Shown here: one piece after another, positions 1 through 55,266 of the stretch
Position numbering within the stretch: position 1 is the first letter of the stretch
How the letters are laid out: every line of letters begins with the position of its first letter
Source: Chiloscyllium plagiosum
Lineage: Eukaryota
Assembly: GCF_004010195.1 (NCBI RefSeq)
Contig: NC_057749.1
Span: 18,882,929-18,939,591 of the forward strand
DNA: 56,663 nt
Reading direction: 5' to 3'
Notes under the pieces: generated by a model
The model's database searches: none
What the model was told of the DNA's origin: nothing
What the model saw: only the letters and a program-made list of their open reading frames with translations
Made by a program: the position numbers and the translations under genes

Positions 1-117
1 CTTCAGGCTCTCTGCCTTTATTCCTGATGAAGGGCTTTTGCCCGAAACGTCAATTTTGCTGAAGCTCCTCGATGCTGCCTGAATTGCTGTGCTCTTCCAG
101 CACCATTGATCCAGAAC
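1..117 (+). mobile_element. Penelope-like element 3' end (pLTR, family A)
   Basis: Nearly the same sequence as 53816-53928, which terminates an RT-encoding PLE in this window. Confidence 0.85.
20..55 (+). ncRNA. Minimal type I hammerhead ribozyme motif (PLE family A)
   Basis: CTGATGA(24-30)-A-GGGC tttt GCCC-GAAA(44-47)-CG-TC. Core intact; helix I poorly paired in this copy. Confidence 0.6.
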
Positions 118-832: not shown

Positions 833-1016
833 AGTTAAAAATCACACAACACCAGGTTATAGTCCAACAAGTTTAATTGGAAGCACACTAGCTTCTTCAT
901 CAGCGTCGCTCCGAAAGCTAGTGTGCTTCCAATTAAACCTGTTGGACTATAACCTGGTGTTGTGTGATTTTTAACTTTGTACACCCCAGTCCAACACCGG
1001 CATCTCCGAATCATGA
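833..1016 (+). mobile_element. Palindromic non-autonomous PLE derivative (family C)
   Basis: About 60-bp inverted arms (833-893 / 916-976) plus a ~40-nt unpaired 3' tail. 12-bp TSD cttttagtaatg (821-832 / 1017-1028). Same family as 31853-32065; the central hammerhead region is partly deleted. Confidence 0.8.
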
Positions 1017-2114: not shown

Positions 2115-2930
2115 TGAAAGAAAAGAGATTGCTGGAAATCTGAAACAATAATAGGAATTGCTGGAAAATCTCAGTAAGTCTGGCAGCATCTGTGATAAGA
2201 AATCAGAATTAATGTTTGGGTCCAGCGATCCTTCTTCAGAACTGATGGTAGCTAGGAAAAGAGTGGTTTTTATACAGAAGATGGGGTGGAGGGGGAGGGA
2301 GGGTGGAAATAGAGCCCAAAGAGAGAACAGAGAAAAACAGTTGAGCGGACAAGGGAGTGGTTAAAGGTCAGTCTAGGGGAATCGCTGCTAAAAGGGACTT
2401 TTAGTAGCTGACCATAGGTAATGTCATCACATAGGCTGCTACCACACAAGGTCTGGTGTGTGGGAGTGGGGGAAAGCATGAGGAAATGTGCTCAATCCCT
2501 AAAATTGTTTGCTCAATCCCTAAAATTGTTGAACTTGATATTAAGTCCAGAAGGCTGCAGGATTCACCAGCGGAAAATGAGGTTCTGCTCTTCCAGCTTG
2601 TGCTGAGCTTTGCTGAAGCACTGCAGTAAGCCTGAGACAGTGATTTGGCCAGGGAGCATGGTGATATGTTGAAGTGGCAGACAGCAGGAAGCCCAGGCTT
2701 TCTTTTTGCAGACAGAACATAGGTGTTCTCGGTAATGGTCACCTAGTCTGGACTTTGTCTCCCCAATGTAGAGGAGACTGCATGGTGAACAGCATAAATA
2801 AACATTAAGTGCTGGAGAAACACACATTCCCAAAGGAATGTCATATTAGATTCAACACTAACTCTGTTTCTCTCTGCACGGATGCTGTCAAACTTGCTGA
2901 GTTTCTCCAGCATTTTATATTTTTATTTCC
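2115..2930 (-). mobile_element. Old Penelope-like element fragment (GIY-YIG endonuclease end plus pLTR)
   Basis: Minus-strand ORFs read NVYLCCSPCSLLYIGETKSRLGDHYREHL and HKLEEQNLIFR. A decayed hammerhead-like ctgaagaagg..ggacccaaac lies near 2212-2242. Confidence 0.8.
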
Positions 2931-10319: not shown

Positions 10320-10671
10320 TAACAAAGAGGATTGATGAGGGCAGAGCGGTAGATGTGATCTATATGGACTTTAGTAAGGTGTTCGACAAGGTTCCCATGG
10401 GACACTGATTAGCAAGGTTAGATCTTGCGGGATACAGGGAGAACTAGCCATTTGGATAAGTACTGACTCAGAGGTAGAAGACAGAGGGTGGTGGTGGAGG
10501 GTTGTTTTTCAGACTGGAGGCTTGTGACCAGTGGAATGCCACAAGGATCAGTGCTGGGTCCTTTACTTTTTGTCATTTATATAAATGTTTTGGATGCGAG
10601 CATAAGAGAATCAGTTAGTAAGTTTGCAGATGGCACCAAAATTAGAGGTATAGTGGACAGTGAAGAGGATT
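10320..10671 (+). mobile_element. CR1/HER1 LINE RT fragment
   Basis: VTSGMPQGSVLGPLLFVIYIN...SKFADGTK; homologous to about 35337-35690. Confidence 0.92.
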
Positions 10672-10899
10672 AGAGCTGAAAATGTGTTGCTGGAAAAGCG
10701 CAGCAGGTCAGGCAGCATCCAAGGAGCAGGAGAATCGACGTTTTGGGCATGAGCCCTTCTTCAGGAATTCCTTCAGGAATTCAGGCTTATGCCTGAAATG
10801 TCGATTCTCCTGTTCCTTGGATGCTGCCTGACCTGCTGCGCTTTTCCAGCAACACATTTTCAGCTCTGATCTCCAGCATCTGCAGTCCTCACTTTCTCC
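10672..10899 (+). mobile_element. Palindromic PLE derivative (family A)
   Basis: About 80-bp inverted arms around decayed hammerhead cores, followed by the unpaired tail gatctccagcatctgcagtcctcactttctcc. Confidence 0.85.
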
Positions 10900-15979: not shown

Positions 15980-16120
15980 CTAGTCGAGGAATCCTGACGA
16001 AGGGCTTATGCCTGAAACATCGATTCTCCTGCTGCTCAGATGCTGCCTGACTGGCTGTGTTTTTCCAGCACCATGCTCTTCGACTCTGATCTCCAGCATA
16101 TGCAGGCCTCGCTTTCACCT
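15980..16120 (+). mobile_element. Short solo PLE pLTR unit (family A) with hammerhead motif
   Basis: gaatc-CTGACGA-A-GGGC ttat GCCT-GAAA-ca-TC-gattc at 15989-16026, with a perfect 5-bp helix I. About 18-bp degenerate TSD (15962-79 / 16121-38). Confidence 0.8.
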
Positions 16121-21455: not shown

Positions 21456-22130
21456 AGCTGAAAATGTGTTGCTGGAAAAGCACAGCAGGTCAGGCAGCAT
21501 CCAAGGAACAGGAGAATCAACGTTTCGGGCATGAGCCCTTCTTCAGGAATGAGGAAAGTTTGTCTAGCAGGCTAAGATAAAACGTAGGGAGGAGGGACTT
21601 GTTGTGTTGCTATGGTCTGGCGATGGAGGAGTCCAAGGACCTGCATGTCCTTGGTGGAGTGGGAGGGGGAGTTGAAGTGAGCCACGGGGTGGTTGGGTTG
21701 GTTGGTCCGGGTGTCCCAGAGGTGTTCTCTGAAACATTCCGCAAGTAGGCGGCCTGTCTCCCCAATATAGAGGAGGCCACATCTGGTGCAGCGGATGCAA
21801 TAAATGATGTGTGTGGAGGTGCAGGTGAATTTGTGGCGGATATGGAAGGATCCCTTGGGGCCTTGGAAGGTAAGGGGGGAGGTGTGGGCGCAAGTTTTGC
21901 ATTTCTTGCGGTTGCAGGGGAAGGTGCCGGGAGTGGAGGTTGGGTTGGTGGGGGGTGTGGACCTGACGAGGGAGTCACGGAGGGAGTGGTCTTTTCGGAA
22001 CGCTGATAGGGGAGGGAAATATATCCCTGGTGGTGGGGTCCGTTTGGAGGGGCAGAAATGACGACGGATGATACGATGTATATGGAGGTTGGTGGGGTGG
22101 TATTTGAGGACCAGTGGGGTTCTGTCCTGG
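21456..22130 (-). mobile_element. 5'-truncated Penelope-like element (GIY-YIG plus pLTR)
   Basis: Homologous to 29831-30370. Minus-strand hammerhead core CTGAAGA-A-GGGC tcat GCCC-GAAA-CG-TT at about 21514-21550. A gtatctg direct repeat flanks it. Confidence 0.9.
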
Positions 22131-25071: not shown

Positions 25072-25356
25072 GATGTAAGTTTGCTTGCTGAGCTGGAAGG
25101 TTCATTTTCAGACGTTTCGTCACCATACTAGGTAACATCATCAGTGAGCCTCCGGTGAAGCACTGGTGGTATGGCCCGCTTTTATACCTAAACACATAAA
25201 TAAAAAGTAGGCCTTACTATCAGTGCTTCACTGGAGGCTCACTGATGATGTTACCTTGTGTGATGATGAAACATCTGAAAATGAACCTTCAAGTTCAGTG
25301 AGCAAACGGACATCCAGAACCTCAACCTGAGCTGCGAATCTTCTCAAAACTTGCTA
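25072..25356 (+). mobile_element. Palindromic PLE derivative (family B)
   Basis: About 110-bp inverted arms, a ~40-nt unpaired 3' tail, and a 13-bp TSD actttgtttta(t/c)a (25059-71 / 25357-69). Confidence 0.8.
25108..25147 (-). ncRNA. Minimal type I hammerhead ribozyme motif (PLE family B), core intact
   Basis: Minus strand: tca-CTGATGA-T-GTTACC tagtat GGTGAC-GAAA-CG-TC-tga. Helices I and II are fully paired. Confidence 0.7.
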
Positions 25357-25384
25357 ACTTTGTTTTACAATTAACTCTTCCTAA

Positions 25385-26312
25385 TTTGGTCAGTGCATTG
25401 AGTACAGGAGTTGGGAGGTTGTATTGCAGCTGTACAGGACGTTGATTAGGCTGCTGTTGGAATACTATGTGCAATTCTGGTCTCTCTGCAATAGGAAGGA
25501 TGTTGTTAAACCTGCATCTAACCATGTTTTAAAGGGCGGCACAGTAGTTAGCACTGCTGCCTCACAGCGCCAGAGACCCGTGCTCAATTCCCGCCTCAGG
25601 CACCTGTCTGTGTGGAGTTTGCACATTCTTCCCGTGTCTGCGTGGGTTTCCTCCGGGTGCTCCGGTTTCCTCCCACAGTCCAAAAATGTGCAGGTTAGGT
25701 GAATTGGCCATGCTAAATTGCCCATAGTGTTAGGTGAAGGGGTCTGGGTGGGTTGCTCTTCGGAGGGTTAGTATGGACTTGTTGGGCCGAAGGGTCTGTT
25801 TCCACACTGTAAGTAACCTAATCTAAAGTTCAGAAAAGATTTACAAAGCTGTTGCCAGGTTTGGAGAATTTGAGCTATAGGGAGAGGTTGAATAGATTGG
25901 GGCTGTTTTCCCTGGAGCATCGGAGGTTGAGGGGTGACCTTATAGAGATTTATAATATCATGACAGACGTGGAGAGGGTAAATAAACAAAGTATTTTACC
26001 CGGCGTTGAGTCTAAAACTAGAGAGCATAGGTTTAAAGTGAGAGGGGAAAGATTTAAAAAGGACCTAAGGGGCAACTTTTTCACGCAGAGGCTGATGCGT
26101 TGTATGGAATGAGCAGCCAGAGGAAGTGGTGGAGGCTGATACAATTACAACATTTAAAAGGCATCTGGGTGAGTATACGAATTGGAAGAGTTTAGAGGAA
26201 TATGAGCCAAATGCTGGCAAATGTGACTAGATTAATTTAGGATATCTGATTGATATGGACGAGTAGGACCAAAGGGTCATCTGTTTCCATGCTGTACATC
26301 TGTATGACTCTG
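25385..26312 (+). mobile_element. CR1/HER1 LINE 3' fragment
   Basis: QLYRTLIRLLLEYYVQFWS and [30 protein letters not shown]; typical tail. Confidence 0.92.
25534..25826 (+). mobile_element. HE1-type SINE (well-preserved copy) inserted in CR1
   Basis: gggcggcac...gttagcactgctgcctcacagcgccagagaccc head, core, and aatcta-like tail. Confidence 0.92.
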
Positions 26313-29307
26313 AGTAAGTTCCTTATAAAAATATCAAACGCTGTAAACTAAATTTGCTTGTTTTCAAATAATTTAAGTATCATTCTGAGTATTGTTGTGG
26401 TACCTATGTTTTTTTTTCTATTAGTCTAATTTGCAGATTTAGCCAAAGCTCTGTCATTTGGCAGCATGGCAGGGCTTGTTCTTGAAGTAATTGCAATTGA
26501 AGTTATTAAGAGTGCCTTTTGGGCATTTGGTGGATTTTGGTGCATGAGTGAGGATATATTGATGAGCAAGTCATGTTACCTGCTTATAGTTGCTTTTAAA
26601 TGGTAACTATTCATGAGGAAATGAATACACAGGCGTAGATACTAATTGAATGGATTTTGGAAGAGAACCAAATTATAGAAAACAAAAAAAACCCGCTTAT
26701 TACTGTAAAGTGCTTTGAGTATTTTTGCTTCAAGATGTTCATCCCTGCTCATTTTCAGATACATTTATTTATCTTAAATGTTATTTGTGTTCATTGATTG
26801 ATTTGGTTTTTAAACTATTATGTTCATTCTCTTTAGAATGAATTTTGAGTAGTGCAAGATGTAGAACAGTGCAGTACAGTTCAGTTCCTTCGGCCCTCGA
26901 CGTTGTGATCTTTTATCCTACTCTAAGATCAAACTAACTGACATACCCTTTGTTTTACTGTCATCTATGTGCCTATCCAAAAGATTAAATGTGCCTGAGA
27001 CTCTGCTCCACTGCAAAAACACTCAGATGACACAGAGGATGCTTTTTTTTGCGAAGTCAACCATTTTTAAAATTTCATCTTGGAATTTTCCTTGTGTATT
27101 TAGACGTTGAAATATCTAACCTGTGAGCAATAAGTTTCTAATTATTCTTTTTCCTGAAACCTAGCAAAAGTTACTCTTTAAATAGGCCATATTTTCCCAG
27201 GTATAAAGCTAAAGTAGTCTGCCTTATTGGTAACAGATTGCTGTGACATTGAGTGAATCGGTAATTGGTTATGTTGGGGAAAAAAAGTTGGAAGAATTAT
27301 TTTTGGAAGCCGGATTGGCTATATACTTTTTCATTTCCTCAATGCTTTGCCCACTGTGAGATCTGATGATCGGTAGCAGCAGCATGAAGAGCTGCTGAGA
27401 GGAAGTAACACAAAATACAGAGTAATAAGAGTCTGCCATTCAATCAGATAATATGTAACTATATTCGATCAGACCGCTGTAACTATGTGGGCTATCTACT
27501 AGATATGCAGCTAAGGTAATTGATTGTATTTGTCTCCAGTTGCATGGTTGAGGTAGATGATCTGGTATTCTCCTAAGTGTCATAATTCCTATGGGACAGT
27601 TGATGGTTACAGGGTCTGGCCATATTCTGAGGTGACAAATAAGAGTTCAGTTTTCATTGTTTACAGGAGCGGCTGATGAGTGAAATTACCTGGCTGTGGT
27701 CAATGTGTTTTTGATTGATGGACTACAAGTACAAAGCTTTATTTGCCTGCTAGTTCCATAACTAACAAGATTTTAGCAGCTATGCGTGGTTTTCTTTATT
27801 GTGCGCAGACTGTCTGCGTGGAGCTGTATAGCTGAATGAATGGATAGGTGATTAATGGCAGTTCAGTGGACTCTATTCTTCATCTTTTCCTCATGTCTGC
27901 AGGCTTTAGCAAAGAGCCTTTTGTTTATGCTGTCCAGGGCCTTATTGTTAATAGGGGACTGTGGAGGATGTGGTTTGATGCAGCTTTGCAAGTATTGCAG
28001 ATAAAAGACTGAGTGCATTCTACGGGCTTGGAGTTTGAGAGTTCAAGTTTCCTTGTTATGATGTAACTATTTCATGATAATTGTTATGCACCCATATTAT
28101 TATCCTGAAAGAACAGTAACCTTTTTGCTCTCTCTCCGTGATTTCTTGTTTTGTTTTCTGATTTTTTGTTTCCCTCCTGTGTGTTTTACTGGGAATAGTT
28201 AACACTAGTTTATGTGTGAGGTTTTTTATATGTAGTAGCATTCTTTCCTCTTCAACACCAAGCACCGTCTTTCAATCCCATAGAACAATATCAGATATTA
28301 AGTGCTACTTTGTAAGTTTAGCCGAAGTATCGAATCCATGAAGAGGGGAATCCATTTGCGTATATTTTTTACAACAAGTTACCAGCGGAATCACAATAAC
28401 TCAGTTAGTACTTAACTTTCACAGTTTCCAGAAAATATTACCCCCACATATATTTCCCAAGTGTGAGTGCCTGCTCGCTGGTGTCTTTTTAACACTGCAT
28501 ACTAAAAGGAAAGCGTGATGTGCTCTATAATTCTGAATGTATTCAAGGGGAGAGGAGCTTTATGGCTTATTGGTAGTGTCCCTATCTTTGAGTCAGACGC
28601 TTTTGATAATTTATCTGATGATTAAAAGTATCTACCAAGGGAAGGTGTTGTCTCTCAAACCTCCATAAAACAGTTAGAGCTACATTTTATTGAATAGTGC
28701 CTCTACAATGCTTAAGCTGTTCTTGTTAATCAAAGCTTTTAGTTAAAACGTTAGGCCAAAGGGAATTCAAGTGTTTCTCACAGGCTGCTTCTAGAACGAG
28801 AGATGCCAATAGATATGTAGATATTGGGAAGATACAAGATGCGAATATGGACCGGTAGGCGATGTTGCAATTTCTGTATAATATTTTCCTTTATAATATT
28901 TAGGATTACGAGCTATTGCTTATCATTAAGCACGATAGGTGGAACGTGTGAATTTTACGGCATTATCTAAATGACATACTGTTAATATTTTTAATAAAAG
29001 GAGTAATGCTTCTTGTCTTGAATGGTTAAGTCTATAGCTGTAGTTGGTGTACGCTGTTCATATTTGAGGTGTTTTTTTGCTTGTGGACAAATGGTATTTT
29101 GCATACTAATGCTTGGATGTGTATTACAGCATTAACAAGATAGAGTCAGAGTTTTTATAATATGGAAAAGGTCCTTCAGCTCATTGGATCTACACTAGTC
29201 ATCAAGCAACTCTTGGGGGTTCCCATTTTTGCAAACCTTTTAGGTAGTAAGTCTCAGATTGAGCAAAGTTTTTTTTCCTCAAAAGAAAGGTTTCTCTCTA
29301 TCCAAAT

Positions 29308-30488
29308 TAGAGTGGTGCTGGAAAAGCACAGCAGGTCAGGAAGCATTCGAGGAGCAGGAAAATCAACATTTTGGGCAAAAGCCCTTTATCAGGAATGAAG
29401 GCAGGAAGCCTCCCGTTGGAGAGATAAATGGGAGGGAGGTGGGGCTGCGGAGAAGGTAGCCAAGAGTACAATAGGTGGATTGAGGTGGGATGAAGGTGAT
29501 AGGTCAGTGAGGAGGGTGGAGAGGATAGGTGGGAAGGAAGATTGGCAGGTAAGTCAAGTCATGGGGATGGTGCTGAGCTGGAAGGTTGGAACTGGGGTAA
29601 GGTGGGGGAAGGGGAAATGAGGAAACTGGTGAAGTCCACATTGATAGAAAGTGAGGGGTGCAGATGCTGGAGATCAGAGCTGAAAATGTGTTGCTGGAAA
29701 AGCGCAGCAGGTCAGGCAGCATCCAAGGAACAGGAGAATCGACGTTTCGAGCATAAGCCCTTCTTCAGGAAGTCCACATTGATGCCATGGGGTTGAAGTG
29801 TTCCGAGGTGGAAGGTGAGGTGTTCTTCCTTCAGGCTTCGGGTGGTGAGGAAGTGGCGGTGGAGGAGCCCAGGAACTGCATGTCCTCGGCAGAGTGGGAG
29901 AGGGAGTTGAAATGTTGGGCCATGGGGCGGTGGGGTTGATTGTTGCAGGTATCCCGAAGATGTTCCCTAAAGCGCTCTACGAGAAGGCGTCCAGTCTCCC
30001 CAGAGTAGAGGAGACTGCATCGGAAGCAACGGATACAATAAATGACGTTTGGTGGATGTGCAGGTGAAACGTTAATGGATGTGGAAGGCTCCTTTGGGGC
30101 TTTGGATGGAGGTGAGGGGGGAGGTGTGGGCGCAGGTTTTGCAATTCTTGCGGTGGCAGGGGAAGGTGCTAGGAGGGGAGGGTGGGTTGTTGGGGAGTGT
30201 GGGCCTGACCAGGTAGTCACGGTGGAACGGTCTTTGCGGAAAGGGGTGGGGAGAGAAATATATCCCTGCTGGTGGGGTCTGTTTAGAGGTGGCGGAAATG
30301 TCGGCGGATGATGTGGTTTATGCAAAGGTTGGTAGGGTGGAAGGTGAGCGCCGGGGGGTTCTGTCCTTGTTACAGTTGGAGCGGTGGGGTTTGAGGGTGG
30401 AGGTGCAGGATGTGGATGAGATGGGTTGGAGGGCTTTACCAACCACGTGGGAAGGGAAATTGTGGTCTTTAAAGAAGGAGGCCATTGG
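29308..30488 (-). mobile_element. 5'-truncated Penelope-like element
   Basis: GIY-YIG segment NVIYCIRCFRCSLLYSGETGRLLVERFREH; the 3' UTR/pLTR matches 53634-53928. Confidence 0.92.
29646..29768 (-). mobile_element. 123-bp solo PLE pLTR unit nested in a PLE
   Basis: Perfect 15-bp TSD gaagtccacattgat (29631-45 / 29769-83). Begins at an intact hammerhead core CTGAAGA-A-GGGC ttat GCTC-GAAA-CG-TC. Confidence 0.88.
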
Positions 30489-30777
30489 TGGTCCATTTAG
30501 ACCACATTAACTGCGTTATCCTCATCAACACACCTAAGTCACCTCATTGAAAAAGTCCATCAAATTTGTTCGACATGATCTCCCCCTGACAAAGCTGTGA
30601 TAACTATCATTGATTAATCCTTGCTCCTCCAAGTAGAGATGAATCTGCTCCTCAGAATTTTTTCTAATATTTTCCCTATGACTGATTGGCCTGTAGTTTC
30701 ATGGTTTATCCCTACCAGCCTTCTTGAATAATGGTACCAACATTAGCTTTCCTCCATGTTCTCTCGCACCCCCCCAT

Positions 30778-30985
30778 GTGGTTAGCTCATTTAGCTGGAT
30801 GGCTGGTTTGTGATTCAAAGTGATGTTAATGGTGTGAGTTCAATTGTCAAGCCAGCTGAGGTTATCAACCTGTCCCTGTGCCTGAGGCATGGTGGCCCTC
30901 AGGTTAATCCACCACCAGTCTTCTCTCTCTAATGAGAGAGCAGTCCCTGATGGTCCAGTAGGACGATGGCAATTTTATCTTTATA
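30778..30985 (+). mobile_element. tRNA-derived SINE (third family)
   Basis: gtggttagctcatttagctgg A box and gagttcaattg B box; about 200 bp; ends in a tttatcttta tail. Confidence 0.55.
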
Positions 30986-31351
30986 TTTTAAATGCTTACC
31001 TTTGTTATGAGTTATTTATAGCACAGAAACAGGCCATTCAGCACAACTGGTCCAGGCCAGTATTGATGCTGTCCTCTTTCCATGTCTTTACCCAACTACA
31101 TTTATGTAGTTTCCTATTCCAGTCTTCCTCTGTGCTTAACTAACTTCTCCTTAAATGTATCTATGCTGCTCACCTCAAACACATTCTCTTCATTGAGTAA
31201 ATAAGCTTCTTTGGAATTTCCTATTTGATTTATTGTCAGCAGTTTTACATTTGTGATCTCTAATTCTTGATCACAAGTGGAAACATCCTTTCCATATCTA
31301 CCCTTCATCTCTCTCGTCTGCTCTTTTCTCAATAGACAAGCCCCAGCCGTA

Positions 31352-31622
31352 CAGTCCATGGAATCCCGACAGTGTGGCAACAGGCCATTTGGCCCAACAA
31401 GACCACAGTGAACCTTCAAAGAGCATCCCACCCAGACCTATTCCGCTACCCTAACCATGTTATCTTTCATTTCTCATGCCCAACTCACCTAACCTACTCA
31501 TCCCTGTAAACACTCTGGGTAATTTAGCATGGCCAATTCACCTAACCTGCACATCTTTGGACTGTGGAAGGAAACCAGAGCACCTGGCGGAAACCCACAC
31601 AGACACTGGGAGAATGTGCGAA
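31352..31622 (-). mobile_element. HE1-type SINE lacking its own tRNA head
   Basis: Core and tail match HE1; homology stops at the gtttgcacattc position. Confidence 0.85.
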
Positions 31623-31627
31623 CAAAA

Positions 31628-31692
31628 TAGGAGAAGATGGTTTTGATCCATTGATCTCTGGGTTATGGGGCCAGCATGCTCCCACTGTGCGG
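31628..31692 (-). pseudogene. Initiator tRNA-Met(CAT) pseudogene/retrocopy
   Basis: Minus strand gcacagtgggagcatgctggccccataacccagagatcaatggatcaaaaccatcttctccta aligns to vertebrate tRNAi-Met (GCGCAGCGGAAGCGTGCTGGGCCCATAACCCAGAGGTCGATGGATCGAAACCATCCTCTGCTA), mostly with CpG-type changes. The 5' acceptor strand is missing. Confidence 0.85.
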
Positions 31693-31829
31693 CGGGTTCA
31701 ATGATTATCAATAATCATCGCCATTGGAAACCAAAGGGTGACAGATTCTGCCTTGCCTGGCACACGTGTGGCGCGAATGAGGGCTTGTCACTTGTCAGCC
31801 CAGGCCTGGGGATATCGTCCATTGCTGCC

Positions 31830-32790
31830 TCGTAGAGATCTACAACACAGAAGTTAAAAATCACACAACACCAGGTTATAGTCCAACGGGTTTAATTGGA
31901 AACACTAGCTTTTGGAGCGCCGCTCCTTCATCGGGTGATCATCAACCACCTGATGAAGGAGCAGCGCTCCAAAAGCTAGTGCTTCCAATTAAACCTGCTG
32001 GACTATAACCTGGTGTTGTGATTGTTAACTTTGTACACCCCAGTCCAACACTGGCATCTTCAAATTACAACACAGAAAAAGACCCTTCAGCCTATCCAGT
32101 CTACAGTGTTGAAAAACAAATACCTAACTATTCTAATCCACTTCCCAGCCTTTGACCAAGTGCACTTTTAAGTACTCAAGTATTTAGATATTATGAAGGT
32201 TTCTGCCTCCACACCTTTCCAGGCAATGGATTCCTGATTCCCACCATCAGCTGAGTGAAATTACTTTTCCTCACATCACCTTGAAACCTCCTGTCCTTTA
32301 CCTTCAGTTATGCCCACATTGATCACTCTACCAAGGGAAAAGAGTTCCTTCCTGTCTTCCTTGAATATGCCCTCATAATCTTATGCAAATCCATCTCCTC
32401 TGTTCTAAGGAAAATAACCCCACTTATCCAATCTGTTTTCGTAACTAAAATTCTCCAATCCAGGTAATATTTCTCACCTCTGCCGAAGTGTCACTTGAAT
32501 TGTTAATTCTGATTTCTCTCCACAGAAGCTGCCAGACTTGCTGAACTTTTCAAGCAATTTCTGTTTCTGTTGTCTTCTTCACCACTTTATCTCCCTGCCA
32601 CCTTAAGGGGCCAGTGTACCTGCACACCCTGTTCCCTTTGATCCTCAGGTTACTGCCATTCATCATGGATTCCTCGCCTTGTTTGTCCTGCCCAAGAGCA
32701 TCACCTCACTCTTATCCAGATTGAATTCAATTTGCCGTTGATCAGCCCATCTATATTCTCTTCCTCACTGTTTACCACCTCAGCAAGTTT
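31830..32790 (-). mobile_element. Old CR1 LINE 3' fragment (tail interrupted by PLE)
   Basis: Reverse-complement CR1 tail and ORF2 remnants. Confidence 0.7.
31853..32065 (+). mobile_element. Palindromic PLE derivative (family C) with two opposed hammerhead motifs
   Basis: 12-bp TSD tacaacacagaa (31841-52 / 32066-77). cac-CTGATGA-A-GGAGC agc GCTCC-aAAA-GC-TA-gtg at 31947-31981, with a mirror copy on the minus strand. Confidence 0.85.
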
Positions 32791-33638
32791 CGTATCACCT
32801 TTTCAGATAAGTGTATCCTCTGCATTCTTATGTCATTGTCATGAATCTTTTCTGCACTTCCTTTGATGCTTATTGCCTTTTTGTATGATGGAGATCAGAG
32901 CTATTCACAGTACTCCAAGTGTGGTGTACCAAGGTTCTCTACATATTTCACATCACTTTCTGCTTTTCAGTTTTATTTTTGTAGTGCTTTGTTTGCTGTT
33001 TTTTAAATGGTCTTCTAATTTTGTGTCTCTCCAGTGATCTGATGTGGTAGATCTCTATTGAGAATTTACAAGTGAATATTCTCTCTCCTTCCCTAGATCT
33101 GGGCCACTGAGATTAATTAAATGTGGTACTCCTAGCCTTGCAAGAGACCACAGATTCAGCCAGGCTCCTGTTTCAACTTTGAGGTATCTCTAATGCTTGC
33201 TAATTTGTAGCTCGAGATAACACCAACTCACCAATTTGTTTGTGTGATCCTGTTAAATTTATTTGTTTCTGCTTGAGGTCTATATTGGTGGGGTTGGCCA
33301 CACAAACGCAAATGAACTCCATACTCTTAGGGCATCATAAACAAAGGAATGTTTTGCATTTATTTTGCACATACCCTCATGATGATTCTAAATTCTTCAT
33401 CGCCAATTAATTGTTTTCAAGGCACAGTCTTTGTTTTAAAACACCAGTGATTACACTGCAATGTGTGATGATTGTGAAAAGCTTCGTTACTGCATGTCAT
33501 TCTTTCTTTAAATAAACATGGGAATCATATTGCACACAGTGATGAGGTAAATGATGACAGCATCTGTATATTTGGTAAGCTTAGCTCATTGATGAATATT
33601 GACCAGGGAAATTAATACTTAACCGCTCATCTTCAAGT

Positions 33639-33890
33639 CAAGAGGGTGGTGCTGGAAAAGCGCAGCAGGTCAGGCAGCATCCGAGGAGCAGGAAAATCGA
33701 CGTTTCAGGCAAAAGCCCTTCATCACAAATTCCTGAGGAAGGGCTTTTGCCCGGAATGTCGATTCCTCTGTTCCTTGGTTGCTGCCTGACTGGCTGTGCT
33801 TTTCCAGCACCACCCTCTTGACTTGAAGATGAGTGGTTAGTACTAATTTCCCTGGTCAATAATCTCCAGCATCTGCAGTCCTCACTTTCG
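33639..33890 (+). mobile_element. Palindromic PLE derivative (family A) containing an inverted copy of its flank
   Basis: 16-bp TSD cc(g/a)ctcatcttcaagt (33623-38 / 33891-906). 33821-33861 is the reverse complement of 33597-33638. Confidence 0.85.
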
Positions 33891-34489: not shown

Positions 34490-36555
34490 TTTCATTACTT
34501 CAATTCCTGTTCAGGTGAAAGGCAAGGCTGGTAGATGTACAGAATGCTGGATGATGAGAGAAATTGAAGTTTTGGTTAAGAAAAAGAAGGAACCATATGT
34601 CACGTATACGCACAGAGATCGACGAATCCTGGGAAGAATATAAAGGAAGTAGGAATATGCTTAAGAGGGAAATCAGAAGGGCAAAGAGGGGACATGAGAT
34701 AGCTTTGGAAAATAGAGCTAAGGAAAATCCAAAGGGATTTTATAAACACATTAAGGACAAAAGGGTAACTAGGGAGAGAGTAGAGGCCCCTGAAAGATCA
34801 ACAAGGCAGCCTATGTGGAGCCGCAGGAGATGGGGGAGATACTAAATGAGTATTTTTGTATCAGTATTTACTGTGGAGAAGGGCATGGAAGATATAGAAT
34901 GTGGGGAAATAGTTAGTGACATCTCGAAGAATGTCTATGTTACAGAGGAGAAGGTGCTGGATGTCTTAAAACGCATAAAAGTGGATAAATCCCCTTTACC
35001 TGATCAGGTGTATCTTAGAACTCTGTGGGAAGTTAGGGAAGTGATTGCTGGGCCTCTTGCTGAGATATTTGTATCAAAGATAGTCACAGGTGAGGTGCCA
35101 GAAGACTGGAGGTTGGCTAACGTGGTGCCACTGTTTAAGAAAAGTGGTAAGGATACGCCAGAGAATTATAGACCGGTGAGCTTGACATTCGTGGTCGACA
35201 AGTTGTTGGAGGGAATCCTGAGGGATGGGATTAACATGTATTTGGAAAGGCAAGGACTGATTAGGGATAGTCAACATGGCTTTGTGCATGGGAAATCATG
35301 TCTCAAACTTGATTTGAGTTTTTTTTTTGAAGACGTAACAAAGAGGATTGATGAAGGTAGAGCAGCAGATGTAATACTTATGGACTTCAGTAAAGTGTTC
35401 AACAAGGTTCCCCATGGGAGACTGATTAGCAAGGTTAGATCTAATGGAATACAGGGAGAACTAGCCATTTGGATACAGAACTGGCTCAAAGGTAGAAGAC
35501 AGAGGGTGGTGGTGGAGGGTTGTTTTTCAGACTGGAGGCCTGTAACCAGTGGAGTGCCACAAGGATTGGTGCTGGGTCCAGTGCTTTTTGTCATGTATAT
35601 AAATGATTTTGAATGTTAACATGGGAGGCATAGTTAGTAAGTTTGCAGATGACACCAAGATTGGAGGTGTAGTGGCCAGCGAAGAAGGTTACCTCAGATT
35701 ACAATTGGATCTTGATTAGATGGGCCAATGGGCTGAAGAGTGGCTGATGGAATTTAATTTAGATAAATGTCAGGTGCTGTGTTTTGGCAAGACAAATCTT
35801 AGCAGGACTTATACACTTAATGGTAAGGTCCTAGGGAGTGTTGCTAAACAAAGAGACCTTGGAGTGCAGGTTCATAATTGCTTGAAAGTGAGGTCTCAGG
35901 TGGATAGGATAGTGAAGAAGGTGTTTGGCATGCTTTCCTTTATTGGGCAGTACATTGAGTACAGGAGTTGGGAGGTCATGTTGCAACTGTACAGGACATT
36001 GATCAGGCCACTTTTGGAATATTGTGTGCAATTTTGGTCTCCCTTTTATTGGAACGATGTTGTGAAACTTGTAAATCTTTTCTAAACCCTTTCAAGGATG
36101 TTGCCAGGTTTGGAGGATTTGAGCTACAGGGAGAGGCTGAATAGGCTCACGCGTTTTTCCTGGATCATCGGAGGCTGAGGGGTGATGTTATAGAAGTTTA
36201 TAAAATCATGAGGGGCACGGATAGGACAAATAGACAAAGTCTTTTCCCTGGGGTGGGGAAGTCCAAAACCAGAGGGCATAGGTTTAGGGTGAGAGGGGAA
36301 AGACTTAAAAGGGACCTAAGGGGCAACTTTTTCACGCAGAGTGTGGCACGTGTATGGAATGAGCTGCCAGAGGAAGTGGTGGCGGCTGGTACAGTTGCAA
36401 AATTTAAAAGGTATCTGGATGAGGACATGAATGGGAAGGGTTTAGAGCGATACAGGCTAAGTGCTGGCGAATGGAATAGATTAGGTTAGGATATCTGTTG
36501 GCATGGATGAGTTCGATCGAAGGGTCTGTTTCCGTGCTGTATATCTCTCTGACTC
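34490..36555 (+). mobile_element. CR1/HER1 LINE, about 2-kb 5'-truncated ORF2 (RT) copy, frameshifted
   Basis: [46 protein letters not shown], then KFADDTK after a frameshift; complete 3' tail. Confidence 0.97.
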
Positions 36556-38082
36556 TTTAAAAAAAAATCCTGAAGTGTTTTACAACCAATGAAGCACTTG
36601 TGTAGTATATAAATCATAGCAACTGATTTGCACACAGCATTTCCCACACACAGTAATGAGTTGAAATTGTTGCACGTGCTACTCTGGTTGCTGACTGGGA
36701 GTGCCAAACTGACCTGGAATGGTTTGTATATACACATATATTTAGCTGAAGCAATAGGCAATTCAGTTCCTAGACCTTGCTCTGCCTTTTGATAAAATTG
36801 TGGCTGATCTGATTGTGGACTCAGTGTCACCTGCCTATTTTTTCCTCTATCTCTTGATTCCCTTGCCAATCAGCAATCTTTGATCATGACAGATAGCCTG
36901 GTTCCCTTGGGATCTGCAACTGAATTTCTTTTGATATTGAGTGAGGCAGTTCTAACATACACAATAGGTTTCCATGATCCATTCTTCTGACTAGCACTAT
37001 TTAGTTAATTTGACAAGTCCCACTTCATGTATAAACTTTTTTTTAATAACAGTAAATGTAACCTATCAAAATAATTTCATTTCAGAAGTGTTTACTCATT
37101 TAGTTTGATATTTCTCATAAGTGTGAGATGTCAAATATGACCAATTTGCGAAAAAGAATGTGGGTGAGTGGAAGATGGTATCAAACCTTGTGGGGAAGGT
37201 GGGGGCTCATTGGAAGGTGGGTAGTGGACTAAAGTTCTCAAGATGATTGCTATTTAGCTTTTGCTTGGAATGTGCTCTTATTCTCCTTCCCTGTATATGC
37301 AAACTGTTATTTACCTTTCTCAGAAGGCTTTCTAAAGTTTATCAATTTAAATAATCTTTTTGCTTCTGTAACTTTCTGAAATATTCAACAGATATTTCAA
37401 TTTGCAAGTGTCTTCACTACTCAAACAGTCCACGGAAAATGGTAACTTCAGGTATATATGCTGGTCATTTTCGTGTCCAAGAAATTCAACTCAACTAATT
37501 GACTTCCATGTAGCGGTTGCTAGTTTAAAAATTATATAATTGATTGATCAGGTCTTTGTGATACCCAGATCAATGCAAGTTTGCTTTTTAAATTGTGGAT
37601 TCGAGTTGTAAATTTACATCACTCTCTGAACTTAAGTTTTCAATAGATGTGGTCTTACATTACACAAAGAAATTGCCAGAATGTATGAGTGAATAGAGTC
37701 ACTTGTGTGCCAGAAGCAGCATGATCCAGTATGTGAGCTTAGCACGCCACACTAGAATGTCATCCCAGAAGTCTAATTGGGACTGTTATTTTTTCATTCA
37801 TTCTTGAGACATGGGCATTGTTATTACCTATTTACCCTTGGAAAGGTAGCCATAATGCAATTTCTTGAACGGCTGCACTTCATCTATTCAGGCCCTGTTC
37901 AGAAGGAGTTCTCTGGTTTTGGCCCAGTGTCTGTGAAGTAACTGTACTTGGCCAGGATGGTGAGTGACTAGGAGATGAACTTTCAGTTGGTGCTGTTCCA
38001 TGAATTGATGCCCTTATTCTTATACATGGAGAAACTGCAAGTTTGATCTATACTATTGAAGGAAAATTCCTAGTTCAATTTG

Positions 38083-38958
38083 ATGAGCCTGATGTCGGTG
38101 GTGGGCAAGTTGTTGGAGGGAATCCTGAAGGACAGGATGAACATGTGTTTAGAAAGGCAGGGAGTAATTAGGGATCGTCAACATGGCTTTGTGTGTGGGA
38201 AATCATGTCTCTCAAACTTGAATGAGTTTTTTGAAGAAGTAATAAAGAGGATCGATGAGGGCAGAGTGGTTGTTGTGATATATATGGACTTCAGTAAGGC
38301 GTTCGTCAAGGTTCCTCATGGGAGTCTGGTTAGCAAGATTAGATCTCATGGAATACAGGGAAAACTAGCCATTGGATACAGAACTGGCTCAAAGATTGAA
38401 CAAAAGAGGGTGGTAGTGGAGGGTTGTTTTTCAGATTGGAGGCCTGTGACCAGTGGGCTACAAGGATCGGTGCTGAGTCCACTACTTCTCGTGATTTATA
38501 TAAATTATTTGGAAGTGAGCATAAGAGGTATAGTTAGTAAGTTTGCAGATGACACCAAAATTGGAGGTGTAGCGGACAGTAAAGAAGGTTACCTCAGACT
38601 ACAACGGGACCTTGATCAGAGGGGCCAGTGGGCTGAGAAGTGGCAGAGTTTAATTTAGATAAATGTGAAGTGCTGCACTTTGGGAAAGCAAATCTTAGCA
38701 GGACTTATACACTTAATGGTAAGGTCCTAGGGAGTGTTGCAGAACAAAGAGACCTTGGAGTGCAGGTTCATAGCTCCTTGAAAGTGGAGTTGCAGGTAGA
38801 TAGGACAGTGAAGAAGGTGTTTGGTATGCTTTCCTTTATTGGTCAGAGTATTGAGTACAGGAGTTGGGAGGTGGGATATGGGCAGGGTGCTGGCAGGTGG
38901 AACTAGATTGGGTTGGACCGAAGGCTCTGTTTCCATTTTGTACATCTATGACTCTATG
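38083..38958 (+). mobile_element. CR1/HER1 LINE RT fragment with internal deletion
   Basis: QHGFVCGKSCLSNL..YMDFSKAF..SKFADDTK; jumps from YRSWEV directly to the 3' tail at about 38872. Confidence 0.95.
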
Positions 38959-44331: not shown

Positions 44332-44412
44332 NNNNNNNNNNNNNNNNNNNNNNNNNNNNNNNNNNNNNNNNNNNNNNNNNNNNNNNNNNNNNNNNNNNNN
44401 NNNNNNNNNNNN
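44332..44412. other. Assembly gap (N run) between a PLE pLTR and a CR1 tail
   Basis: 81 Ns. Left flank 44255-44331 is a minus-strand PLE end; right flank 44413-44540 is a minus-strand CR1 tail. Confidence 0.99.
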
Positions 44413-44871: not shown

Positions 44872-44967
44872 GATTCCTGAAGAAGGGCTCATGCCCGAAA
44901 CTTTGATTCTCCTGCTCCTTGGATGCTGCTTGACCTGCTGCGATTTTCCAGCAACACATTTTCAGCT
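44872..44967 (+). mobile_element. Short solo PLE pLTR unit (family A)
   Basis: gattcctgaagaagggctcatgcccgaaac...acattttcagct. Confidence 0.85.
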
Positions 44968-45352: not shown

Positions 45353-45490
45353 GATTCTGGATTAGTGGTGCTGGAAGAGCACAGCAGTTCAGGCAGCAGC
45401 TCCTCGGATGCTGCCTGAACTGCTGTGCTCTTCCAGCACCAATAATCCAGAATCTGGTTTCCAGCATCTGCAGTCATTGTTTTTACCTAG
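45353..45490 (+). mobile_element. Palindromic PLE derivative immediately downstream of ptpn9 exon 2
   Basis: 46-bp inverted arms (45353-98 / 45409-54, one mismatch), PLE tail, and perfect 15-bp TSD ttcttattgttaatg (45338-52 / 45491-505). Confidence 0.88.
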
Positions 45491-46922: not shown

Positions 46923-47052
46923 GATTCCTGAAGAAGGGCTTAAGCCCAAAACGTCGATTCTCCTGTTCCTTGGATGCTGCCTGACCTGCTGCGCTTTTCC
47001 AGCAACACATTTTCAGCTCTGATCTCTAGCATCTGCAGCCCTCACTTTCTCT
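46923..47052 (+). mobile_element. 130-bp solo PLE pLTR unit (family A)
   Basis: 11-bp TSD ctgtaaatttg (46912-22 / 47053-63); hammerhead core with GAAA mutated to AAAA. Confidence 0.88.
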
Positions 47053-52103: not shown

Positions 52104-52950
52104 GTAAGTTTGTGGTTTGTCTTTTCCTTTATGATTTTCCAACTTGGTGGTGGTTGGGAGCACCATAAACAGGAAATGTTATCCTTTGCTGTATGATTTA
52201 GCATTTATAGTTCACCAGATCGTGAATTAAACATTTATACATGGAATCATAGTTCCAGGGAACAGGGATCTAAATAGTACCCCACAGGGACTTTTTGGCA
52301 GAAGTTTGAAGAGAAAGCTACTGACATTGTTCGATTCTACCTCCTTCCCAAGATCCACAAGCCTGACCACCCTGGCCGACCCATTGTCTCAGCATGCTCC
52401 TGCCCCACTGAACTCATCTCCACCTACCTCGACACTGTCCTATCCCCCCTAGTCCAGGAACTCCCCACATACGTTCAAGCCACCACCCACGCCCTGCACC
52501 TCCTCCAAGACTTCCGTTTCCCCGGCCCCCAACGCCTCATCTTCACCATGGATATCCAATCCCTCTACACCTCCATCCGCCATGACCAGGGCCTCCAAGC
52601 CCTCCGTTTGTTTCCTCTCCCGATGTCCCCAACAGTACCCTTCCACCGACACACTCATTCGTTTGGCCGAACTGGTCCTCACCCTTAACAATTTCTCCTT
52701 TGAATCCTCCCACTTCCTCCAGACCAAAGGGGTAACCATATGAGCCCCAGCTATGCCTGTCTCTTTGTTGGCTACGTAGAGCAGTTGACCTTCCGTAATT
52801 ACACCGGCACCACTCCCCACCTCTTCCTCCGCTACATTGATGACTGCATTGGCACCACCTCGTGCTCCCGCGAGGAGGTTGAGCAATTCATCAACTTCAC
52901 CAACACATTCCACCCTGACCTTAAATTTACCTGGACCATCTCCGACACCT

Positions 52951-53633
52951 NNNNNNNNNNNNNNNNNNNNNNNNNNNNNNNNNNNNNNNNNNNNNNNNNN
53001 NNNNNNNNNNNNNNNNNNNNNNNNNNNNNNNNNNNNNNNNNNNNNNNNNNNNNNNNNNNNNNNNNNNNNNNNNNNNNNNNNNNNNNNNNNNNNNNNNNNN
53101 NNNNNNNNNNNNNNNNNNNNNNNNNNNNNNNNNNNNNNNNNNNNNNNNNNNNNNNNNNNNNNNNNNNNNNNNNNNNNNNNNNNNNNNNNNNNNNNNNNNN
53201 NNNNNNNNNNNNNNNNNNNNNNNNNNNNNNNNNNNNNNNNNNNNNNNNNNNNNNNNNNNNNNNNNNNNNNNNNNNNNNNNNNNNNNNNNNNNNNNNNNNN
53301 NNNNNNNNNNNNNNNNNNNNNNNNNNNNNNNNNNNNNNNNNNNNNNNNNNNNNNNNNNNNNNNNNNNNNNNNNNNNNNNNNNNNNNNNNNNNNNNNNNNN
53401 NNNNNNNNNNNNNNNNNNNNNNNNNNNNNNNNNNNNNNNNNNNNNNNNNNNNNNNNNNNNNNNNNNNNNNNNNNNNNNNNNNNNNNNNNNNNNNNNNNNN
53501 NNNNNNNNNNNNNNNNNNNNNNNNNNNNNNNNNNNNNNNNNNNNNNNNNNNNNNNNNNNNNNNNNNNNNNNNNNNNNNNNNNNNNNNNNNNNNNNNNNNN
53601 NNNNNNNNNNNNNNNNNNNNNNNNNNNNNNNNN
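52951..53633. other. Assembly gap (N run)
   Basis: 683 Ns inside the PLE. Confidence 0.99.
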
Positions 53634-53834
53634 AGTTCCAAACTTCCAGCTCAGCACTGTCCCCATGACTTGTCCTACCTGCCTATCTTATTTTCCACCT
53701 ATCCACTCCACCCTCTCCTCCCTGACCTATCACCTTCATCCCCTCCCCCACTCACCTATTGTACTCTATGCTACTTTCTCCCCAACCCCACCCTCCTCTA
53801 GCTTATCTCTCCACGCTTCAGGCTCTCTGCCTTT

Positions 53835-53870
53835 ATTCCTGATGAAGGGCTTTTGCCCGAAACGTCGGTT
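53835..53870 (+). ncRNA. Minimal type I hammerhead ribozyme motif in a PLE pLTR, core intact
   Basis: CTGATGA(53839-45)-A-GGGC tttt GCCC-GAAA-CG-TC(53865-66); weak helix I. Confidence 0.65.
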
Positions 53871-55266
53871 TTACTGCTCCTCGGATGCTGCCTGAACTGC
53901 TGTGCTCTTTCAGCACCACTAATCCAGATACTGACATTGTTGCTGGGTAATACAGTAGGGTCCAATTATCAGTTCATGGATACTGTTCTGCCTATATTCA
54001 CTTAAAGAGTAGCTAGGTAAGCACATGAGGGAGGACAAACAAAGTGAGATAAAGAGGGAGGCAGGATGGCACTCCTATAAAGTATAAATCCCAGTAGAGA
54101 CCAGTTCAACCTGTCTCTGAGCTGTAAATCCTATGTGATTGGACAACTAAGAGATGTGATCGATAAAGTTGAGTTTGCAGCAGTGATGGCATATTTGCAA
54201 TAATCTTGGCCCTAATTGACTCTTGTTTGAGTATGGTTTTGTTCTTATTCTGCTTGACTGTGTGATTGCAGTCCTTGCTTCAGTCTCTTCCATGACACTT
54301 GATGCTTTCTTGAAGAAGTAATGCCTGTTCTTGGCTGTGTTGAAATAGATTTTCATCCCTCTCTGTTATATTCCTTGGAGGCCTGATGTAAATCCCAGTA
54401 GTTTTGGGAGTGTCAGAGCAGCAGTGAGCCATTTTGGCAACTTTCACAATTTTGTTTCCTCCTTTGACCCAGTGGTGATGGCCTAGTTACCTCTCTGAGA
54501 AGTTAGTAGATCAATTTTACCACAATTATGAGCTCATTTTCAGATAAAAATGTCTACATATCATAATTAAAAATCGTACCTTTTTTCTGTAGCTCAAATT
54601 ACTGCTCCATGGGATGAAGAGGACAATATTGACATGAGATGCCCTGATTAGAGAGCATGACTACAACTGTATAAAATAAACATGGTTAGGAAGATTCTAG
54701 AAATGACTCTTTGTGATTTACTGGAAAATGTATGTACAATGCATTCCAAAAGTGCAGTGAAATTTTATTTATTCATTCGTTCATTTAGATACAATGATGG
54801 AAAGGCAGAAACTTTCCTACCTCCCACCTTGGGGTTTTTTCCAGGTCTCCACCTTCGTTCTACCTGAGAAGGATGTGATATTACATAAGTGCTTCTTGGA
54901 CAGGATAAGGAAGGAGAAAAGTGAAAGAAATTTGCGATCAGGAAGTAGCAGCTTTAGGATGGAAGAAACTTAACATGGATTTATTTGTAGGCAATTGTGA
55001 CAACAATGTAAAAGCATCTTTGATCACAAGCTTAAAACTAAAAATCATAAATTTCTGAAGGCTTAAAATTTATTACATTGAATTGGATCAAGTTTAGAAT
55101 TGTATTTTATCTAAAATGATTCCAGCAATGCATTTGTTCCTCTAACTTCTCTTGGCATTAATTTGCAGAGTATTGCATCAAATGGACAGTTTTTGTTGCT
55201 GGAAAAATCAAAAGCTTGGCATACGAAAAAGTTATTTAACATTAAAGCTTTAATTAAATGTTTAAG

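Follow-up and report, generated by a model that had tools for sequence, protein, structure and literature searches.

A stretch of 56,663 nt from the shark Chiloscyllium plagiosum (contig NC_057749.1, forward-strand positions 18,882,929 to 18,939,591; hereafter the window) contains several families of short hammerhead-like motifs, and it raises the question of what these motifs are, how the families carrying them are related, and whether two copies might have to come together in order to cut. A preliminary description of the window had read them as minimal type I hammerhead ribozymes of Penelope-like elements (PLEs), with an extra base after A9 and with a 4-nt palindrome replacing helix III, and the analysis presented here supports that reading. 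Overall, the motifs are very likely minimal hammerhead ribozymes (min-HHR) located in the terminal repeat module of PLEs of at least four lineages. Their identity as PLE minimal hammerheads, taken by itself, is held with high confidence, and their cleavage as dimers in vivo is proposed tentatively, at somewhat less than even chances.

Hammerhead motifs are present in the window at the positions first reported, the original coordinates for families A, B and C proving right to within a few bases upon re-reading (Table 1). A structured descriptor, built on helix II, a single spare base following A9 and GAAA-NN-T-H, retrieved 10 sites of family A, 2 of family B and 2 of family C, and an eleventh family A site, the decayed partner at 33733-33760(+), was read outside those 10. 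The strict family A pattern, CTGANGA-A-GGGC-N4-GCCC-GAAA-CG-TC, is matched by three of the ten (24, 21519 and 53839), and site 29741 deviates from it solely by a G.U wobble in helix II. A loose pattern (CTGANGA, gap, GAAA) gave 13 matches against 5.21 +/- 2.10 expected, a value reached by none of 100 shuffles. When the window was taken together with 70 fetched loci, which were oriented on the motif and selected for an intact one (family A, L001-L030; family B, L031-L050), the structured descriptor picked out 92 distinct motifs over a total of 268,764 bases and none in the reversed sequence. In the family C pair of Table 1, G12 is A in the copy at 31950-31978(+), and the partner at 31906-31934(-) has CCGATGA and AAAA boxes. 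The family C copy announced at about position 913 does show the GAAA-GC-TA half, but it is part of a truncated head-to-head pair in which that strand has no CTGATGA. The decayed fourth family suspected in the same description, here family D, is real, and its intact form is found repeatedly in the genome.

Table 1. Penelope-like element units, hammerhead motifs and associated reading frames in the window (positions in nt from the first letter of the window; a point in the strand column stands where no single strand applies)
Feature	Positions	Strand	Remarks
Family A unit, cut by window start	1-115	+	hammerhead 24-51, strict pattern
Family C head-to-head pair	846-963	.	truncated inside hammerhead; GAAA-GC-TA half kept, + strand without CTGATGA
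Family D hammerhead, decayed	2210-2239	-	GGGTC/GACCC type
Family A head-to-head pair	10668-10871	.	hammerhead 10737-10764(-), G12->A; + partner truncated within motif
Family A hammerhead	15994-16021	+	11.1 changed; CG decayed to CA
Family A hammerhead	21519-21546	-	core intact; H17 = U
Family B head-to-head inverted pair	25072-25314	.	25111-25144(-) intact, 25242-25275(+) decayed
Older family A element, 3' part	29311-29593	-	dead hammerhead 29365-29392: G8->A, G12->A, CG->TG
Young 123-nt family A mini-copy	29646-29768	-	hammerhead (29741-29768) and 3' module; inside the older element's endonuclease frame
Decayed reading frame of older family A element	29834-30496	-	CxxC-type linker and GIY-YIG endonuclease start
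Family C head-to-head pair	31847-32034	.	hammerheads 31950-31978(+) and 31906-31934(-), both decayed
Family A head-to-head pair	33597-33864	.	hammerheads 33699-33726(-) and 33733-33760(+), both decayed
Family A hammerhead	44877-44904	+	palindrome broken (CT)
Family A hammerhead	46928-46955	+	G12->A
Family A Penelope-like element	52278-53928	+	reverse transcriptase frames 52278-52949, 3' untranslated part, intact hammerhead 53839-53866; end near 53928

The anatomy of the motif was then compared across families. All of them share the CUGANGA and GAAA core boxes and U16.1 followed by H17, which is never G, the H17 context being GUC in families A and B and CUA in family C. Helix II is closed by G10.1-C11.1 in every family and reads GGGC/GCCC in A, GUUACC/GGUGAC in B, GGAGC/GCUCC in C and GGGUC/GACCC in D. 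The hairpin of helix III is absent, and the dinucleotide at 15.2/16.2 is self-complementary, CG in families A, B and D and GC in family C. Helix I comprises on average 2.1, 2.25 and 2.45 contiguous pairs in families A, B and C, respectively, within a range of 2-4, and it reaches 4 bp in one family A sublineage only, the published helix I being of 4-5 bp. A single unpaired base, A in families A, C and D and U in family B, separates A9 from G10.1. The viroid hammerhead with an extra nucleotide, to which the shark motifs are compared below, is reportedly the plus-strand one of chrysanthemum chlorotic mottle viroid (CChMVd).

Pattern searches over the 3.56-Gb genome, counted as exact matches with the reversed patterns as control, yielded 87,506 matches for family A, 1,009 for family B, 17,099 for family C and, with 15.2/16.2 left free, 1,391 for family D, every reversed control giving 0. 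Among the first 100 of the 1,391 family D matches the dinucleotide at 15.2/16.2 is CG in 22, CA in 30, TG in 28, TA in 4 and another in 16, a mixture that points to an old family whose CG has mostly decayed. A broader pattern from which A, C and D were excluded had 41,210 matches against 570 in its control; of the first 100, 90 show CG or its decay forms (43 CG, 30 CA, 17 TG), 5 show GC and 5 another dinucleotide, and further lineages appear among them, with helix II of GUCACC/GGGGAC (a family B relative), GUCGCC/GGGGAC and the D-like GAGUC/GACUC. At least four PLE lineages are co-resident in this shark genome, which by itself contains more than 100,000 sequence-intact minimal hammerheads, against the thousands published for coelacanth or frog.

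Reading frames near these motifs tie them to PLEs. In each lineage the motif occupies the sense strand and either follows a reverse transcriptase (RT) or GIY-YIG endonuclease frame or overlaps its end. For family B, frames upstream of the motif match Pfam GIY-YIG, for which the cut-off is 22.6 bits, with scores of 22.7 in L040 and 20.8 in L043, and 6 of the 20 loci have the endonuclease motif on the hammerhead's strand, 264-428 nt upstream of it; in L043 the upstream endonuclease frame reads through the hammerhead motif. For family A, the RT frames at 52278-52949(+), upstream of the intact motif at 53839, match RVT_1 with an E of 0.0028, below the cut-off, and the frame at 29834-30496(-) matches Pfam GIY-YIG with an E of 0.014 and 16.1 bits, also below it. 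This second frame aligns with the family B endonuclease (BLASTP E 2e-08) and is followed downstream by the dead motif at 29365-29392. The same order of frame and then motif recurs in L001 and L022. In the sequence used, positions 52951-53633, which span the remainder of the family A reading frame immediately before the intact motif at 53839, read N, as do 44332-44412, and the corresponding region is masked in L001, L004, L005 and L025. Of the 20 family C loci, 3 have a frame piece 460-810 nt upstream of the motif; the proteins related to this piece in databases come from three shark species and are uncharacterised. A Pfam scan of these relatives gave no match, PF26215 being listed by the source for three of them; one relative, P0006, spans a CxxC linker and the endonuclease region and aligns to the endonucleases of families A and B with E values of 4e-06 and 2e-04. 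A search of the shark's own genome for the GIY-YIG family, in which 150 of 14,403 candidates were scored, gave one weak match.

The endonuclease pieces are 26-39% identical between lineages, and families A and D share a box, GATGCTGCC-N-GAC-N-TGCTG, about 17-40 nt past the cleavage site, even though their helix II and spacer differ. For these two reasons the families, at first called unrelated, are instead distantly related PLE lineages. The family D copy of the box lies at window positions 2150-2210(-); in family A a small hairpin comes after the box, along with an AC-rich stretch beside the short unit end. Its pattern has 198,123 matches in the genome.

None of these structural features is new, although the preliminary description had listed them as possibly so; all appear in Cervera and De la Pena 2014 (PMC4209133). 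That work places minimal hammerheads in the repeats that flank every PLE it examined, fishes, coelacanth and Xenopus being among the hosts, reports consensus families with abundant covariation, and gives the conserved base between 9 and 10.1, the G10.1-C11.1 pair and the palindromic 15.2-16.2, with a proposal of dimer action that a 2019 review (PMC6765202) repeats. The shark motifs coincide with those metazoan min-HHR in core boxes, unpaired base after A9, G10.1-C11.1, palindromic 15.2/16.2 and lack of a helix III hairpin, as well as in paired opposite-strand motifs, which are 100-700 bp apart in the published cases. On the contrary, helix I is shorter in the shark, with 2-4 contiguous pairs instead of the 4-5 stated, and copy number is higher, with 87,506 exact copies of family A versus about 4,000 coelacanth and 9,000 Xenopus motifs. 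The shark families are, therefore, additional members of a type already described together with its dimer model. A search for literature on PLE hammerheads in sharks found no paper, the repeat libraries Repbase and Dfam lying outside this search.

Likeness to other hammerhead systems is more restricted. The double hammerheads of newt satellite and viroid RNAs (Forster et al. 1988) also have a weak or absent helix III and a palindromic centre, and a shared helix III was proposed for them; nonetheless, they are described with a stem of 1-2 bp, a small loop and longer helices I with loop contacts, while the shark motifs have the 4-nt palindrome only. The extra-nucleotide viroid hammerhead (De la Pena and Flores 2001) resembles them in its one unpaired base between A9 and G10.1, and it differs in being a type III monomeric ribozyme, the shark base being A in families A, C and D or U in family B. 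Animal non-LTR (long terminal repeat) retrozymes (PMC7229834; Li et al. 2026 preprint) likewise have type I hammerheads tied to PLE terminal repeats, but as tandem arrays with canonical hammerheads, in contrast to the dispersed 3' fragments of the shark. Regarding family B, its layout parallels that of Poseidon PAc of Anolis carolinensis (PMC11167929), in which a start codon is described at the start of stem II, with the cut some 25 nt further down, RT start sites (the unit ends) about 70-110 nt into the frame and an optional 30-40 nt tail; this likeness is one of layout, and families A and C differ from PAc in having no open frame that starts in the motif.

The extra U of family B makes A9-U-G10.1 an AUG. 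The frame so opened remains open for 23 codons, to the short unit end, in 15 of the 20 loci; of the other two frames, one is open for 36 codons in 1 locus and the other in 2. No open frame starting within the motif was read in the fetched loci of families A and C.

Conservation was evaluated in family A copies found through a 13-base downstream box, leaving out those ascertained by the motif. An excess of core over flank conservation had been named beforehand as a check, and it is present: in 46 box-selected copies compared with a natural reference copy, 45 of 828 core and helix II sites other than CpG differ, against 122 of 874 flank sites (Fisher p 2.6e-09). The excess in the flanks is partly a sublineage difference, master copies having altered their flanks and kept the motif. 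Decay is concentrated at the three CpGs, namely C11.1-G12, 15.2-16.2 and C17-G1.1, and the catalytic positions (C3-A9, G12-A14, A15.1, U16.1 and H17) are kept across lineages whose helices and flanks differ.

Compensatory changes are found in helices II and I. In helix II, every pair except G10.1-C11.1 differs between families, and a compensated family A sublineage, GAGC/GCTC, counts 539 copies against about 21 expected from independent occurrence of the two single changes (1,530 and 1,230 copies); this compensation is one lineage event and not many. In helix I of family B, where 14 distinct sequences were compared, pair 1.3-2.3 is U-A in 7 of them, C-G in 6 and open in the last, and 1 of 500 shuffles reaches its covariation score. 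The palindrome behaves differently from what had been claimed. It does switch between families, from ACGU in the others to AGCU in C, but a genome-wide search for covariation of the palindrome within families A or C found none. Beside the 87,506 CG copies of family A there are 34 double-transversion variants (AT 20, AC 6, GT 5, GC 3), and beside the 17,099 of family C there are 13 (TG 9, TA 3, CA 1, CG 0), numbers that fit random mutation (in A, two independent mutations with an A/T bias) and not selected alternative palindromes. The "covarying palindrome" is, thus, that single switch of C versus all other lineages.

The position of the motif within the element was derived from where copies begin and end. 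In all families the units are 5'-truncated, and the hammerhead precedes their 3' end by 75-126 nt. Counted downstream from the CTGA start, copies cease to be homologous at about +90 or +125 in family A, +77 or +114 in family B and +85 or +120 in family C, and upstream their homology extends from a few bases to more than 500. Two alternative 3' ends together with a variable upstream extent indicate that copies are 5'-truncated and may or may not carry about 35 nt more at the 3' end. A 3' "tail" of 30-40 nt is given as a PLE signature by Craig 2021 and Frangieh 2024 (PMC11167929), and 5' truncation with an inverted 5' partner is described in PLEs by the former; in the window, inverted 5'-truncated partners occur at 10668-10871, 25072-25314, 31847-32034 and 33597-33864. 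The mini-copy at 29646-29768 is flanked by 15-bp target-site duplications (29631-29645 and 29769-29783), the last 3 bases of which equal the element's own 5' end. Most genomic copies are dead on arrival, that is, 5'-truncated, often to about 120 nt comprising the hammerhead and the 3' module, and often with an inverted head-to-head partner.

On these grounds, a mechanism of cleavage can be outlined conditionally. A lone copy would be unable to close helix III. Two copies, located either on one longer-than-unit transcript or on two transcripts, might pair their ACGU (or AGCU) tetranucleotides and swap the 2-4 bp strands of helix I to give a double hammerhead, which would cut after GUC in families A and B or after CUA in family C. 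Such a double hammerhead was modelled from natural copies with nearest-neighbour energies, helix III being shared, the strands of helix I exchanged and helix II kept within each strand. An A+C dimer, in which 2 of the 4 helix III pairs remain, has an energy of -0.3 to -1.6 kcal/mol, compared with -13 to -26 for homodimers, and an A+B dimer, sharing ACGU, scores like the homodimers even though its helix I pairs do not form, the model giving no reward to helix I formation; the difference between A and B resides in helix I, their palindromes being identical. As modelled, the palindrome would set C apart from the other lineages and would not amount to a general family code, so that the proposal that ACGU and AGCU restrict pairing between families would at most apply to the separation of C and cannot hold as a family barcode, A and B having the same tetranucleotide. 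Such an energy model cannot judge helices this short, and it neither supports nor refutes a pairing code.

Several observations weigh against the motifs being working PLE hammerheads or against their action as dimers. Regarding structure, (i) helix I has only 2-4 contiguous pairs; (ii) no Rfam hammerhead model matched in the comparison suggested at the outset, at the gathering score or with E up to 10 on the window or on 130- and 271-base stretches; (iii) monomer folds are no more stable than those of shuffled sequences (z 0.53 and -0.70); and (iv) the double hammerhead is less favourable, by 1-10 kcal/mol, than two monomers folded separately and is never the cofold minimum. Intact motifs are also a minority, 3 of 10 for family A in the window and 6 of 43 among box-selected family A copies with a recognisable motif, although the latter proportion is consistent with neutral decay after insertion. 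The link of family C to a full RT and endonuclease frame is indirect, being made through an annotated relative from another shark. From published systems, Frangieh 2024 (PMC11167929) reports that catalytic mutants leave in vitro insertion unchanged and that the cleavage site coincides with neither the start nor the end of any read, Cervera and De la Pena 2014 (PMC4209133) report low in vitro activity, with dimeric constructs, and Craig 2021 describes PLE clades that proliferate well without hammerheads.

Part of this evidence could also be read as a hammerhead fold kept for a job other than cutting, such as recognition by the RT or endonuclease, a folding module by the RT start sites or a frame leader, cleavage being dispensable. 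The very short helix I and the energetically unfavoured dimer would agree with it, as would the anole element, for which Frangieh 2024 (PMC11167929) reports, besides the mutants without effect on in vitro insertion, unprocessed RNA as the main substrate and no reads ending at the cut site. The AUG frame of family B points the same way, both in its resemblance to the anole frame starting at stem II and in that cutting would part the AUG from its frame. Nonetheless, every catalytic position is kept across lineages, none of which a plain protein-binding hairpin would need, and in the same report the anole hammerhead does cut in vitro, the C3/G8 controls including rescue by C3G/G8C; a non-cutting role is accordingly considered rather unlikely. 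Less probable still is that the hammerheads are selfish passengers or relics without benefit, sitting in the module that the RT copies first. This was raised by Craig 2021, whose hammerhead-free PLE clades thrive, and the huge copy numbers consist mostly of 3' mini-copies that would include the motif by position alone; but a mere passenger is hard to reconcile with a core and helix II better conserved than the flanks in unselected copies, with compensatory changes in helices II and I, and with retention of the motif across lineages as distant as the endonuclease identities indicate.

It is very improbable that these copies represent non-LTR retrozymes, in which non-autonomous repeats arranged in tandem give rise to small circular RNAs. 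Vertebrate retrozymes, including one of a cartilaginous fish, are derived from PLE terminal repeats in the Li et al. 2026 preprint, and in L044 one strand carries a pair of family B motifs separated by 387 nt. This tandem pair was examined as a retrozyme and rejected, being part of a complex duplicated and inverted arrangement; moreover, window copies are dispersed or head to head and not head to tail, and canonical type I hammerheads have a helix III hairpin that is missing from the motifs. Minimal hammerheads of PLEs thus remain the explanation followed here.

A more speculative use of such hammerheads concerns the template RNA. In family A, 5' ends and head-to-head junctions fall 1-9 nt upstream of the CTGA start in 20 of 30 loci (12 plain, 8 inverted) and in 7 of 10 window copies, loci having been picked for intact motifs, so that ends within the motif escape this count. 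Measured from C3, the mini-copies of about 120 nt and the junctions begin 3-9 nt upstream. Because of this clustering, the template RNA could begin at the hammerhead, and the ribozyme could be a switch, private to each lineage, between the fates of messenger and of reverse-transcription template, a notion for which we see little likelihood. If it were true, helix I would be limited to the few bases available at the template start, cutting would strip the 5' leader, together with the start codon in family B, and the lineage-specific helix I strands (and the palindrome of C) would keep the switch private to each lineage.

The biology of these elements is already published, and the finding chiefly contributes a well-documented case, opening no new question by itself. 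Its copies constitute, however, a large natural mutation sample for mapping the constrained positions of the minimal hammerhead, and a source of sequences for testing whether these ribozymes cut in vivo.

Other features of the window are of minor relevance. Further RT fragments at 34846-35619(+) and 38074-38658(+) (Pfam RVT_1 E 4.7e-18 and 3.9e-17) and at 30537-30698(-) resemble a different class of retroelement and are linked to none of the hammerhead families. A perfect-looking hairpin at 45354-45453, in which the motif is absent, consists of head-to-head family A 3' parts truncated downstream of the hammerhead. Sub-threshold matches to Rfam microRNA families (MIR860, MIR4371, MIR397 and mir-558, with mir-558 or mir-943 at that hairpin) were rejected as microRNA candidates and correspond to the long hairpins of head-to-head element pairs.

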